NCBI GenBank assembly: GCA_013375475.1
Contig: JABXKD010000041.1
Coordinates: 1-31,602, forward strand
Source of the DNA: Promethearchaeota archaeon
GTDB taxonomy: Archaea; Asgardarchaeota; Lokiarchaeia; Sigyniarchaeales; SOKP01
Length of the DNA: 31,602 nucleotides
Reading direction: 5' to 3'
Positions 3,568-21,829 of the stretch are shown in pieces. The notes beneath the pieces were generated by a model that was not told where the DNA came from, did not search any database, and worked only from the letters and a program-made list of their open reading frames with translations. Positions within the stretch are counted from its first letter, which is position 1. Every line of letters begins with the position of its first letter. The translations under genes were made by a program, and so were the position numbers.

Positions 3568-4368
3568 TTAATCAAATTTTAGAGTTTCAGCTGTTTTGTA
3601 GAGATAATTGAAGTAGAAATTGCTAGCGGGACCAAATGCAATGTGATCGGTATCTACACCGAAATAACTCAATCCTTTAAAAATTTCTTGTGTTAAAATT
3701 ATGAACGCTTCTTCCCCTTCATCCATTACTATACTTGTTCCAAAAACTTGGTCTCGAGAACGAATCTCGCAGATTTTGGAGTATTTTTTTTCAATTATTT
3801 CTACGAATTTTTCGTCTTTCACGGCTTCTTCTTCTATTAACAGTTTAATGTCTGTTACTCCCCGAGCCCTTGCTTTTTTGATTCCATCATAAAAAAGCTC
3901 TAAAAATTCATAATATGGTGCAACAATATAAAGTGAATTCTTTGCGTTATCAATAATATTCATACTTCGATTTATGCAGACATCTCTTCCACGATGAATA
4001 TATAAAGCAACTTTAATAGGCGTATCGTGCGATTCATAAATAGGAGTAAGGTTTCTAATGATGTCATTCGAGTGTTTATCAAAACGAACACTGTATTGCT
4101 TTTTTGCGATTATTAAAGCCTCGTCGGGGCTTTTTGCAAAATACCGGCTAGGTCTAGATTCCTCTTCTTTTATGATCCATTTCTTTTCTTTCTCTAATTG
4201 GGTCAAGATATTGTAAATTCTAGAATAAGGGACCGAGCTTGCATCGGAAAGCTCCCTCGCGTCCATCGGTCCTTTTGAGATTAGAGTTAGATAGATAGCT
4301 ATCTCGTAGTCTGTTAGGCCTATAGCACGCAGAGCGTCCTTAACATTATCGGGAGTTTCTTTCGACAT
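3568..4368 (-). CDS. TrmB family transcriptional regulator
   Basis: N-terminal wHTH GLTDYEIAIYLTL...ARELSDASSVPYSRIYNILTQL...SRPSRY; C-terminal PLD-like effector domain (IDNAKNSLYI, ARARGV). Confidence 0.9.
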   Translation of the reverse strand: MSKETPDNVKDALRAIGLTDYEIAIYLTLISKGPMDARELSDASSVPYSRIYNILTQLEKEKKWIIKEEESRPSRYFAKSPDEALIIAKKQYSVRFDKHSNDIIRNLTPIYESHDTPIKVALYIHRGRDVCINRSMNIIDNAKNSLYIVAPYYEFLELFYDGIKKARARGVTDIKLLIEEEAVKDEKFVEIIEKKYSKICEIRSRDQVFGTSIVMDEGEEAFIILTQEIFKGLSYFGVDTDHIAFGPASNFYFNYLYKTAETLKFD

Positions 4369-4478: not shown

Positions 4479-4533
4479 TAACCCTTGCGGGGTTAGTCAT
4501 CTTGCGACTAATATTTTTTCGCAAAAATCATCC
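4479..4533 (-). promoter_or_regulatory. Candidate eukaryote-type SECIS element with adjacent GNRA hairpin
   Basis: Minus strand reads GG-AUGAU-UUUUGCGA-AAAAAUAUUAG-UCGCAAGA-UGAC-UAACCCC-GCAA-GGGUUA. It has an AUGA/GA core (4531-4527 with 4499-4496), an 8-bp helix (4526-4519 with 4500-4507) and an A-rich apical loop, and lies just 3' of an ORF with an in-frame UGA. Confidence 0.6.
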
Positions 4534-4538
4534 TTTTT

Positions 4539-4733
4539 TTACATTAAAGTTAAAAATACATTTATTAAGATACTGCACGTACTAGGTCATCCTCCTCCTC
4601 CATTGTTTTCAAGAGAAATGTAGTAGATTATTATCATAGAAATTAGAATAGCCGAAGTAGTTAATAGTGCTATTAGAATAATATAGAGGACGATTTTGTT
4701 AGTTCTCTTATTTTCAAATAATTTCAATGGCAT
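4539..4733 (-). CDS. Small single-TM membrane protein, candidate selenoprotein (Sec at codon 49, TGA 4587-4589); 48 aa if UGA is a stop
   Basis: Manual translation MPLKLFENKRTNKIVLYIILIALLTTSAILISMIIIYYISLENNGGGG(U)PSTCSILINVFLTLM*. Basic N-terminus, long hydrophobic helix, Gly4, and a SECIS-like hairpin directly downstream. Not in the ORF track. Confidence 0.6.
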
Positions 4734-4934
4734 ATAAGAACCTTTTTTGATTTTTTATATATATTAATTTCAGATATATTAATAGATTTTACTTAAAAAT
4801 TTTTTAATCTAAACCACTTTTATTATCCTTTTAAAGTCGTATAATTAACTGTGTATTAATATTGTATAAAATAAGTGTTTTTAACTCTCATTCAATTATT
4901 TGATATTAGATAAAAATAAGAAGATTGTAAAAGA

Positions 4935-10509: not shown

Positions 10510-11871
10510 TTGTTTATCGATTTCATCAATTTTATCTTGGGTTTTTTTCAAATCACTTTTTAATTGACTAATACGCTTTTCATACGATTTTTTATCCATT
10601 TGTTTCGAAGCATATTTTTTTTCTATAAAGTCTATCAAATTTTTAACCGAACCAAGTTTATTTTCTAAGGCTTTCTTTTGATTAATTAATTCACTCTTTT
10701 TCGCTTTCTTACTAGGCTTAGGAACCGGTTTTAATTTATCATTTGCATCGAGTTTCGGTAATCCGATAAGATCATTGCTGTTTTTTGATTTTAAACTCTC
10801 TGGTTTCGGAGGTAAATCAGATAGTTCTTCTGCAGGGGCTAATAAATCATCAAATCGATCAGTAATTGGTATTTTACTCTGTTTTTGTGATGATTTGCTT
10901 GATTTTCCCCATTGATTTTTCAATTCAGAACTATCACTAACGGGTGTTATAGCAGTTTTAACTAATTTATCAATAGTAGCTTTTATTGTGTTAATTTGAT
11001 TCTGAAATATTTTAAGTAATTCTAATAACTCGCTTTGTTTTGAGATATCCATAGAAAAGTTAATATCTACTTTTGGTTTCCCTTCTGAGCTGAATTGAGT
11101 TGCAGATGGAGAATATTCTGATGAGTTTTGAGTGGTTATTTCCTTCTGAGGGATAGGATCAGGAATTTCGCCACTCGAATGCAATTCCATTCGGTAGTCT
11201 GAAATCAACCACGAAAACAAGTTAAACGCAAAACTGGGATGTTCATCGTTACTAAACCCCCCACCTACTCTATCTCTAAATAATTCATAACTTCCGATTG
11301 CACAAATTCTACCATTATCTGGCTCAGAGACACAAACTAATGCAGATGAGAACGGTTCAGAAGTCTCATTTGAAGAAACGACTGAAATCGAATTTCCCAG
11401 CACACTAAGCGAACAACCAGATCTATAACATAGCGAACTAATACTATTTGTAATTGGATGTGGTGGTATGAACGCTGTAATTATAGGCATATTCTCCATA
11501 CCTAGATTATACATTTCATCCAGAACTTGATCGTTTTCAAAAACAATGCCAAAATTTTGACTAAGTTCACTCAAATTGCTATTTCTCCCTCTATCTCCCC
11601 CAGCATGAGATAATAGCAGTAGTCCTCCTCCATCACGTCTAACCCAATTATTAATTTCAGTAATTTCCATGGTAGTGATTCTAGAAAAGTCCGGACATAC
11701 AAATACTAATATATCAAATGGTTTCAGCGAATTTTGAGTAATTGGAGTTTCCAAGAAGTTATAACAAAGAAAATCGTTTGAATTTAAAAAATCTCGTAGT
11801 TCAGTGAGATTTTCGTCAATTTTCCCTCTAGGTTTGTGTGCCACATCAAACGCGATATTATATTTTGGCAT
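10504..11871 (-). CDS. GldG/IFT52 (GIFT, DUF4350-like) domain protein with disordered linker and C-terminal coiled coil
   Basis: IAFDVAH, DILVFVCP, GGGLLLL, N..ELSQNFGIVFEND, HPIT, GCSL, GRICAIGS; Ser/Pro/Lys-rich linker and heptad-rich end; no signal peptide or TM seen. Confidence 0.65.
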   Translation of the reverse strand: MPKYNIAFDVAHKPRGKIDENLTELRDFLNSNDFLCYNFLETPITQNSLKPFDILVFVCPDFSRITTMEITEINNWVRRDGGGLLLLSHAGGDRGRNSNLSELSQNFGIVFENDQVLDEMYNLGMENMPIITAFIPPHPITNSISSLCYRSGCSLSVLGNSISVVSSNETSEPFSSALVCVSEPDNGRICAIGSYELFRDRVGGGFSNDEHPSFAFNLFSWLISDYRMELHSSGEIPDPIPQKEITTQNSSEYSPSATQFSSEGKPKVDINFSMDISKQSELLELLKIFQNQINTIKATIDKLVKTAITPVSDSSELKNQWGKSSKSSQKQSKIPITDRFDDLLAPAEELSDLPPKPESLKSKNSNDLIGLPKLDANDKLKPVPKPSKKAKKSELINQKKALENKLGSVKNLIDFIEKKYASKQMDKKSYEKRISQLKSDLKKTQDKIDEIDKQL

Positions 11872-21537: not shown

Positions 21538-21725
21538 AAATCTAAATAAACTTTAACACTATAAATTAAAGGGGGAGTGCTGATTTTTAGGAAAAAGTAG
21601 AAAATTACCGACATTTATGATCGTGAAACAAGTCTTTCACGCACAATCATATCACTTAGAGAATATTTTTTAGTGATCCAAGAAAAAAATTTCTTGAAAT
21701 TGTAAGCTGGTATTGATAAAAAAAG

Positions 21726-21829
21726 TGGGAGCGACCGGATTTGAACCGGTGACCAACAAGTCTGGAGCCTGCCGCGATCAGCACTTTGAACCGAACCGGC
21801 AAAGTTATACCGGGCTTCGCCACGCCCCC
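21726..21829 (-). tRNA. trnW: tRNA-Trp(CCA) with a 30-nt non-canonical D-arm intron (21777-21806)
   Basis: Acceptor GGGGGCG/CGCTCCC+A, D stem GCGA/TCGC, anticodon arm GCAGG-CTCCAGA-CTTGT, T arm ACCGG-TTCAAAT-CCGGT. Removing 30 nt gives a 74-nt cloverleaf; 3' CCA not encoded. Confidence 0.93.

Follow-up and report, generated by a model that had tools for sequence, protein, structure and literature searches.

Results

A predicted membrane-anchored selenoprotein gene

The DNA analysed here is a 31,602-nucleotide stretch from a Promethearchaeota archaeon (positions 1 to 31,602 of contig JABXKD010000041.1, assembly GCA_013375475.1), hereafter the window; the assembly amounts to 3.92 Mb in 288 contigs at 32.5% G+C, and the window is its contig C224. 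Positions 4733-4539 on the minus strand very probably hold a genuine selenoprotein gene, whose 64-residue product would carry selenocysteine (Sec) at an in-frame TGA, on the far side of a single predicted transmembrane (TM) helix. The gene is followed by a hairpin, at 4531-4497, that is one of the genome's real selenocysteine insertion sequence (SECIS) elements.

The reading frame opens with ATG at 4733-4731, runs through 48 codons to TGA 4589-4587 and continues for 15 more codons (PSTCSILINVFLTLM) before reaching TAA 4541-4539. The part read past the TGA consists of P-S-T-C and 11 further residues, most of them hydrophobic, and just seven nucleotides, AAAAAGG, lie between the TAA and the AUGA of the hairpin. 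An initial annotation, made from the letters alone, had pointed to this small frame and its hairpin, and its coordinates for the ATG, the TGA and the TAA prove exact to the base; the distance between UGA and hairpin, which it put at about 56 nt, measures 58 nt from the U of the UGA (4589) to the A of the AUGA (4531). The list of open reading frames (ORFs) of the window gives just the 48-residue frame, 4587..4733, so ordinary annotation would truncate the gene or miss it.

Upstream of the ATG lies an A/T-rich stretch resembling a TATA box, and a promoter-like block, AAATTAATATA(T/C)ATAAAAAA, stands at equal distance in close relatives (loci L020-L029). The position of the TATA-like stretch would make a putative mRNA leaderless or nearly so. 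The small gene is probably transcribed independently. A weak hint of expression comes from one metatranscriptome run, which contains an identical 151-nt contig over 4572-4722, spanning the TGA; the uncovered parts of the ORF carry no information.

The hairpin is a type-I SECIS element

The element comprises AUGA (4531-4528), a U (4527), an 8-bp stem (4526-4519 with 4507-4500), the apical loop AAAAAUAUUAG (4518-4508) and U-GA-C (4499-4496). Type-I eSECIS-like elements, as described in a 2024 survey of Asgard archaea, have a core of the form 5'-GA_[G/A]A-3' (mostly AUGA_GA), an upper stem of 7-15 bp with at most two mismatches, an apical loop of 8-20 nt and, in Lokiarchaeia, an A-rich loop start (PMC11227280). 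With its AUGA_GA core, its eight pairs free of mismatches and its 11-nt loop starting AAAAA, the hairpin is a member of this known Asgard class. The initial annotation had called helix II shorter than is typical of eukaryotes; this is no weakness, 8 bp being the normal length for the type-I SECIS elements of this genome.

Both strands of the 3.92-Mb genome were scanned for the pattern AUGA-N, a perfect stem of at least 7 bp, a loop of 8-20 nt starting AAAA, and N-GA. This strict form gave six matches as against none in a reversed-sequence control, and a looser form, in which the loop needs to start only with AA, gave 14 as against two. Included among the strict matches are the 3' untranslated regions (UTRs) of selD2, hdrA-frhD and a peroxiredoxin-like (prx-like) gene; two others are a low-complexity site on contig C111 and an unassigned site on contig C66.

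Covariance models place the hairpin about 40 bits above background. One model (R1) was trained on 30 orthologous hairpins from species other than the present one, whose genome was excluded. Genome-wide it scored the small-gene site at 82.1 bits, followed by hdrA-frhD on C221 (58 bits), the prx-like gene on C229 (43.7), a site on C50 (38.1) and hdrA-frhD on C282 (37.8); these five sites have E <= 5.6e-8, and the next match has 14.6 bits (E 1.18). All of them lie in the 3' UTRs of selenoprotein genes, except the C50 site, whose gene is cut by the contig edge. The other model (R2) was derived from three SECIS elements of established selenoprotein genes alone (hdrA-frhD and prx-like). Run on the window with filters off, it gave the hairpin 54 bits (E 6.2e-12), the runner-up having 13.6 bits; run on the whole genome, it returned the hairpin as the top match outside the training set (E 7.7e-10), with background starting at 17.1 bits. 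R2 is the kind of test that the initial annotation had asked for, and its outcome is in favour.

Across the 31 family loci helix II is 98% paired, six of its eight pairs show changes on both sides, and its covariation score is 0.344, as compared to 0.177 for shuffled alignments (none of 500 shuffles reaches 0.344) and to at most 0.116 for slid controls. The element lies downstream of the small gene in all 31 loci of the genus, with a UGA-to-AUGA spacing of 51-67 nt throughout and of 57-60 nt in 26. Among 25 distant loci, it is found in 21 at E <= 4e-10, is weak (15-18 bits) in three loci of genus g18 and was not found at locus L117. A second hairpin, at 4494-4480, which had gone unmentioned, sits 3' of the SECIS core. 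Its CCC/GGG pairs are retained in 95% of cells of the family alignment, and the SECIS elements of selD, of the prx-like gene and of C50 are likewise followed by comparable second hairpins.

Two further elements found along the way deserve separate mention. The one on C50 (1-101, plus strand) is a type-I SECIS scoring 38.1 bits with R1 and 35.6 bits with R2; it lies 50 nt from the contig start, and ahead of it stand the final 12 codons of a hydrophobic tail, closed by a TAA. It may belong to another copy from the small-selenoprotein family, truncated at the contig edge. The one on C66 (32197-32156, minus strand) has an AUGA/GA core, an 8-bp stem, an 18-nt loop starting with A, a second hairpin and an outer stem, and stands 10 nt after a 309-residue ORF, with a small GTPase gene upstream. 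Downstream of its first ATG this ORF contains no TGA in frame; no selenoprotein could be assigned to the C66 element, which was dropped.

Conservation of the TGA and of a neighbouring cysteine

One genome was examined in full and about 70 loci were read; the genomes compared are related to one another and do not constitute independent samples. A six-frame search of 61 genomes with the 64-residue sequence found 24 places at E <= 5.8e-4; each has a single in-frame TGA, and the alignments extend to residues 49-64. A profile search of the 42 species genomes of the genus gave 35 full-length matches, each with exactly one TGA, and the gene was confirmed by reading the sequence in three genomes (G032, G033 and G062). 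In all, the gene is found in 38 of the 42; the profile search detected none in the other four, which are 81-88% complete. A broader profile matched 92 of 134 other genomes of the family that we call f1 in the Genome Taxonomy Database (GTDB) at E <= 1e-4, distributed by genus as follows: g1 37/41, g18 4/5, g20 1/1, g21 2/6, g27 3/10, g28 43/54 and g29 2/7. Of 26 genomes from the remaining six families of the class, one had a match, and this was doubtful; a single convincing copy was read from family f6 (L117, GGGG-U-G-C).

The alignment of genus copies comprises 31 sequences, three loci that show no family anatomy and were judged noise (L051, L053, L054) having been left out, and L040, a TM-only match within a 570-residue frame, having been ignored. 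Sec is its sole invariant column, and each of the three columns before it is at least 90% Gly, with codons that vary synonymously (GGA, GGG, GGT, GGC). TGA occupies the Sec codon in 31 of 31 aligned copies and in 36 of 36 further Sec-containing copies from other genera and from paralogues, and it is kept by family members down to 21% identity. The check that the initial annotation had proposed, for a conserved TGA or TGY at this codon, comes out in its favour: homologues in the genus and in other genera of the GTDB family have TGA, never TAA, TAG or TGY, with a Cys close by, the exception being a distant relative, L149, which has C-N-C and no TGA.

The codon that ends the frame behaves quite differently. 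It is TAA in 17 copies, TGA in 13 and TAG in one, and its position varies between 4 nt within the SECIS core and 19 nt ahead of the element; in the 13 genes that end in UGA, the stop falls within the core or at most 5 nt before it. TGA accounts for just 12.6% of the stops of long frames in the genome. Because the Sec codon is constant while the real terminator uses all three stops, we take the upstream UGA to be a sense codon. Evidently, UGAs inside the SECIS core or within 5 nt of it act as stops while the UGA further upstream is read as Sec. The frhD frame on C221 (~11170-11185) also ends at a UGA lying within the AUGA core of its SECIS.

A Cys accompanies Sec in all 31 genus copies, at +2 in 20 and at +4 in 11, and is written both TGC and TGT; a His/Tyr and hydrophobic pattern is also retained past the UGA. 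The U-x3-C pair proposed at the outset is therefore correct for the present gene and for one sub-clade (the 11 copies with Cys at +4), but does not describe the family, in which U-x-C is the commoner form. Cys lies within four residues of Sec in 32 of the 36 additional copies. The public proteins of the family are 47-residue "hypothetical proteins" ending at the TGA. In a search of 5.8 billion clusters, 10 of 11 matches were such 47-residue truncations, and one entry reads three TGAs as W. The named public relatives are metagenome-assembled genomes labelled "Promethearchaeota archaeon", which we take to belong to the Lokiarchaeota lineage.

The genome encodes a selenocysteine machinery

The genome uses Sec. 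Its SepSecS reaches 423.8 bits, the NCBIfam cut-off being 224.85. PSTK and SelB are the best-matching families of, respectively, a PSTK-like protein, full-length, and a SelB-like GTPase, each with a score below the NCBIfam cut-off. Two tandem selD genes each contain an in-frame TGA, and further in-frame TGAs occur in two hdrA-frhD pairs and in the prx-like gene. BLAST with the tRNA-Sec of relatives produced a piecewise match on C230, directly upstream of the SepSecS gene. This tRNA-Sec gene, outside the window (C230, minus strand, ~26970-26823), is interrupted by two apparent introns, of 28 nt after the anticodon loop and of 30 nt in the T-loop, and once both inserts are taken out in silico, a 90-nt tRNA-SeC(tca) is called by ARAGORN. 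An intact tRNA-Sec scores above the cut-off in 16 of the 42 genus genomes. Every component that the initial annotation had named as needing confirmation, namely tRNA-Sec, SepSecS, PSTK, SelB and SelD, thus has its counterpart here, the tRNA after intron removal and PSTK and SelB as -like proteins.

When read through, the hdrA frames hold four in-frame TGAs on C221 and three on C282, rather than a single one at the conserved ...DDC.I-U... site, and the adjoining frhD genes hold two each.

Predicted architecture of the protein

The N-terminal segment has a net positive charge in 30 of the 31 family members, and the linker that follows the helix is neutral or acidic in all 31. By the positive-inside rule, the basic N-terminus would be cytoplasmic, and the Gly hinge, Sec and Cys are accordingly predicted to lie outside the cell (N-in/C-out), the orientation that the initial annotation had favoured on the same grounds. 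The tail has a mean Kyte-Doolittle hydropathy of +1.1 over the 31 copies and, with its 11-20 residues, is too short to span the membrane. An AlphaFold2 model built on the family alignment has a helix at residues 9-42 (predicted local distance difference test, pLDDT, 80-88 by block), a loop at 43-51 that holds Sec, and a low-confidence helix at 52-63 (pLDDT ~64); its mean pLDDT is 73, and it merely restates a helix-loop-helix arrangement.

Searches of Pfam and NCBIfam with the small protein gave sub-threshold transmembrane noise only. When the 31 members were compared to Pfam, no known family emerged among the best 25 of 35 families matched, all matches being sub-threshold and to membrane proteins. 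Judged by these searches, the protein belongs to no known family.

Variation across the wider family

The commonest motif in the family is U-x-C, often in the form U-P-C or U-G-C; other genera have C-G-U-G-G, C-x2-U, U-C-C and C-x-U. In genus g18, the proteins end in -G-G-G-U-C or -G-G-G-U-G, a single residue past Sec, and the C-terminal tail appears from these sequences to be dispensable there. Paralogues in genus g28 (loci L144-L155) display C-F-U-H, C-K-I/R-U-K-R with acidic linkers, longer hydrophilic tails, and -G-T-G-U-G ends; all 12 of these loci have a SECIS by R1 (E <= 1.3e-9). L149, the distant paralogue with C-N-C, is one of them; it has no TGA but retains its SECIS, which may denote a recent Sec-to-Cys change.

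Genomic context and features of the window

Downstream of the SECIS, at a distance of about 110 nt and in the same orientation, lies a gene for a TrmB-family regulator (3568-4368, minus strand). Of 63 locus rows from the genus, some of them duplicates of one place, 59 show it next to the small gene. Only the main copy in genus g1 has this linkage: second copies lack it, and none was seen in the flanks examined of 20 out of 20 loci of other genera. The TrmB-family gene is 70-97% identical across the genus as compared to 21-77% for the small selenoprotein, which implies that the latter evolves much faster than its neighbour. In g28 the neighbours are an ARMT1-like phosphatase, a NUBPL-type ATPase, Fe-S proteins and major facilitator superfamily (MFS) transporters; in g18 and g27, PGK. 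Gene context was rejected as a clue to function, since the TrmB neighbour is conserved just within g1 and the others are not conserved across genera.

Coordinates of the individual features are collected in Table 1. Elsewhere in the window, 21723-21829 (minus strand) gives a weak match to the Rfam tmRNA clan (19.8 bits, E 2.7e-4), with a T-arm and an acceptor end resembling those of a tRNA. No tRNA is called by ARAGORN anywhere in the window; the site is probably an intron-containing tRNA gene.

Table 1. Features of the predicted selenoprotein locus (positions in the window).
Feature	Position	Strand	Basis or remark
A/T-rich, TATA-box-like stretch, putative archaeal promoter	4751..4767	-	~26 nt upstream of ATG; read by eye; function inferred
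Coding sequence of predicted 64-residue selenoprotein, Sec predicted at codon 49	4542..4733	-	Orthologues have exactly one in-frame TGA
Basic N-terminal segment, residues 1-13, net charge +3, predicted cytoplasmic	4695..4733	-	Positive-inside rule
Single predicted transmembrane helix, ~residues 14-38	4620..4694	-	Best 21-residue hydrophobic window, residues 16-36
Gly-Gly-Gly-Gly hinge directly before Sec	4590..4601	-	Three columns before Sec at least 90% Gly (n = 31)
TGA predicted to be read as Sec (U49)	4587..4589	-	TGA in 31/31 aligned genus copies
Cys53 (TGC), predicted partner of Sec in U-P-S-T-C	4575..4577	-	Cys beside Sec in 31/31 genus copies
Short hydrophobic C-terminal tail, residues 54-64	4542..4574	-	Tail of 11-20 residues in 31/31
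True stop, TAA	4539..4541	-	Terminator variable in the family
SECIS core and upper hairpin: AUGA-U, 8-bp helix II, 11-nt apical loop AAAAAUAUUAG, U-GA	4497..4531	-	Covariance models; covariation
Second short hairpin, AACCC-CGCAA-GGGUU	4480..4494	-	Also follows the SECIS core elsewhere in the genome

Discussion

The data suggest the following course of events. A ribosome translating the small gene would meet the UGA at codon 49, with a type-I SECIS in the 3' UTR 58 nt downstream. The SECIS would recruit a SelB/EFSec-type factor carrying Sec-tRNA(Sec), and Sec would be inserted where translation otherwise terminates. Translation would then go on for 15 codons to the stop 7 nt before the SECIS, a stop presumably too close to the element for recoding even in those relatives in which it is UGA. 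In eukaryotes, the minimal UGA-SECIS spacing is near 51-111 nt. The predicted product is a single-pass protein with its basic N-terminus inside, a TM helix, an acidic juxtamembrane linker, a hinge of three or four glycines, Sec, a Cys close to it, and a short hydrophobic tail. Incorporation of Sec at codon 49 is what the sequence comparisons lead us to infer.

Were the UGA an ordinary stop, the locus would encode a membrane peptide of 47/48 residues ending in Gly-Gly-Gly, and the hairpin would be a SECIS-like kink-turn RNA that serves another purpose (L7Ae binding, mRNA stability or termination, for instance). A number of observations lean in this direction or otherwise count against a selenoprotein. 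In every public annotation the protein stops at the TGA; conservation of the tail is poor, and g18, with its single codon past the TGA, has almost none of it. In the closest group of sequences, pairwise differences after the UGA amount to 0.187/0.26/0.22 at codon positions 1/2/3, which is not clearly coding-like, and synonymous codon pairs number 74 in frame and 74 in frame +2; the latter frame has just nine stops across the same 500 codons, so that an open frame alone is weak evidence. A homologue with Cys in place of Sec is the usual validation criterion for selenoproteins, and an exhaustive profile search of 1.84 billion representative proteins yielded 21 small matches, none of which reaches the Sec column. 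Four of the 36 additional Sec-containing copies lack a Cys within four residues. On the RNA side, an Rfam covariance scan of the whole window at E <= 10 gave nine matches, none to a SECIS family or to any other family that is credible, and a lower helix I is not consistently visible across the family hairpins; nor did Rfam and ARAGORN scans of the unspliced genome find a tRNA-Sec. The 151-nt contig from the RNA library may be DNA carry-over, and no neighbour gene common across genera was found, which leaves the context without a clue to function. Against an ordinary stop, however, stand the behaviour of the RNA model, whose matches elsewhere in the genome fall in selenoprotein-gene 3' UTRs alone, bar the one contig-edge site; the constancy of TGA down to 21% identity in a genome where it is a minority stop and in a family whose terminators are of all three kinds; the in-frame Cys codon (TGC/TGT) at +2 or +4 in every one of the 31 copies; and the narrow range of UGA-hairpin spacing in 26 of them. 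On balance, we consider an ordinary stop very unlikely. More improbable still is that the small ORF is a regulatory upstream ORF, a selenium sensor in which the supply of Sec-tRNA at the UGA would set the expression of the downstream TrmB-family gene. The position of that gene, past the SECIS and on the same strand in nearly all genus locus rows, would fit such a device, but the linkage is missing in second copies and, within the flanks examined, in all 20 loci of other genera, where gene and SECIS persist. In addition, the TM helix, the charge asymmetry, the Gly hinge and the adjacent Cys are conserved as features of a protein, and the gap between the small ORF and the TrmB gene is A/T-rich and promoter-like.

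If the gene does encode a selenoprotein, the question becomes what its Sec might do. The Sec/Cys pair on its hinge could cycle between the selenolate/thiolate and selenenylsulfide forms at the outer membrane face, and the protein could serve as a membrane-tethered redox arm, acting as a thiol-disulfide or peroxide reductant or as the redox subunit of a membrane partner. We put forward this redox chemistry tentatively, as a possibility somewhat short of a probable one. The pair might instead be a ligand for a soft metal (Cu(I), Hg(II), Zn, Ni or similar), the protein being a membrane-tethered metal trap or a hand-over site for a transporter. In one study (bioRxiv 10.1101/2022.07.06.499078), U-S-C replaces C-S-C in Cu/Zn efflux transporters of the SO_0444 family and C-U occurs in mercury transporters of the MerT family, such pairs being argued to indicate contact with heavy metals; the commonest motif here, U-x-C, with its frequent U-P-C and U-G-C forms, is reminiscent of these bacterial precedents. 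Three of the 31 members also match Pfam FeoB_associated, a family of Cys-rich small membrane proteins, below threshold, but with a best E of 0.18 this is at noise level. No metal transporter, chaperone or resistance gene figures among the conserved neighbours, those found being the TrmB regulator, a radical SAM protein, the ARMT1-like phosphatase, MFS transporters and PGK. Moreover, Sec and Cys differ widely in their spacing from copy to copy (U-C, U-x-C, U-x3-C, C-x-U, C-x2-U), and Cys is missing from some, so a lone reactive selenol fits better than a fixed chelate. A metal ligand appears to us rather unlikely.

The proposed protein invites comparison with several known systems. The eukaryotic SELENOK and SELENOS are short single-pass membrane proteins with Sec after glycines near the C-terminus; their Sec is cytosolic and their linker long and disordered. 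The archaeal protein resembles them in being short and single-pass with Sec after glycines near its C-terminus, to the point that the g18 forms end in -G-G-G-U-C or -G-G-G-U-G. It differs from them in that Sec is predicted outside the cell, that the linker is short and acidic, and that Sec is mostly followed by a neighbouring Cys and a hydrophobic tail. No Pfam match to SELENOK or SELENOS was obtained with the 64-residue protein at E <= 10 or with the 31 members among the best 25 of the 35 families matched, in agreement with the original suggestion that the likeness is one of analogy rather than homology. Another parallel is with animal thioredoxin reductase, whose C-terminal Gly-Cys-Sec-Gly redox arm forms a selenenylsulfide. 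The archaeal Sec/Cys pair likewise is flanked by glycine and borne on a flexible C-terminal segment; in contrast to the reductase, this arm has no flavoprotein body, is tethered by a membrane helix, and has its pair spaced by 0-3 residues in either order. As for the bacterial U-S-C (SO_0444) and C-U (MerT) selenoproteins, the shared trait is a Sec beside a Cys in a membrane protein, with U-x-C spacing. Those proteins are multi-pass transporters with Cys homologues and an in-frame bacterial SECIS, whereas the present one would be a single-pass archaeal microprotein with a 3'-UTR SECIS and, as a family, no Cys form.

The RNA element itself conforms to precedent. In the two Asgard studies (PMC4989117, PMC11227280), type-I eSECIS-like elements of hdrA/frhD, frhA and prx-like genes have the same 3'-UTR location, AUGA_GA core, stem and loop. 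What sets the small gene apart from other Asgard genes with such elements is a very short UGA-SECIS spacing with little variation (51-67 nt within the genus), together with a helix I that is not evident. The protein family, too, is outside the seven families of the 2024 survey, which was a homology search with known selenoproteins alone (PMC11227280); the 2016 study of Lokiarchaeota likewise drew on selenoproteins already known or on Cys homologues (PMC4989117). In a 2026 review the archaeal selenoprotein families number 11; the ones named in the portion available are enzymes or proteins of the thioredoxin-fold type, and the word "transmembrane" does not occur in that text (PMC13188914). The initial annotation had set the protein apart from the classical archaeal selenoenzymes, and indeed the family is outside the lists given in the available parts of these publications (PMC11227280, PMC13188914). 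No description of such a family was met in the literature searched, the supplementary tables of PMC11227280 and PMC4989117, with possible extra candidates, being outside its scope.

These considerations bear on how the selenoproteomes of Asgard archaea are appraised. The family would be the twelfth of archaeal selenoproteins and the first that is membrane-anchored, specific to Asgard-type archaea and without a Cys form. It would also be common, given its presence in 38 of 42 species of the genus and, at E <= 1e-4, in 92 of 134 other genomes of the GTDB family. Surveys based on homology would thus under-count Asgard selenoproteomes, while a search that starts from the SECIS works in such genomes. 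The loci further provide a natural data set on spacing, in which a UGA some 57-60 nt before the SECIS is, we infer, read as Sec and a UGA at most 5 nt before the core or inside it is a stop, the latter in 13 of 31 genes. One might go further and imagine that the Promethearchaeota hold a growing superfamily of Sec-obligate, membrane-tethered micro-selenoproteins, each genome having several paralogous types (GGG-U-x-C, C-x-U, C-x2-U with acidic linkers, and -U-G/-U-C C-termini), and that this superfamily is the archaeal forerunner of the SELENOK/SELENOS class. We think this very unlikely; if it were true, the continuity from Asgard archaea to eukaryotes would reach beyond SECIS elements and Sec machinery to the architecture of the selenoproteins themselves. 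More immediately, a Sec predicted to lie at the outer face of the membrane would be unusual for any prokaryote.

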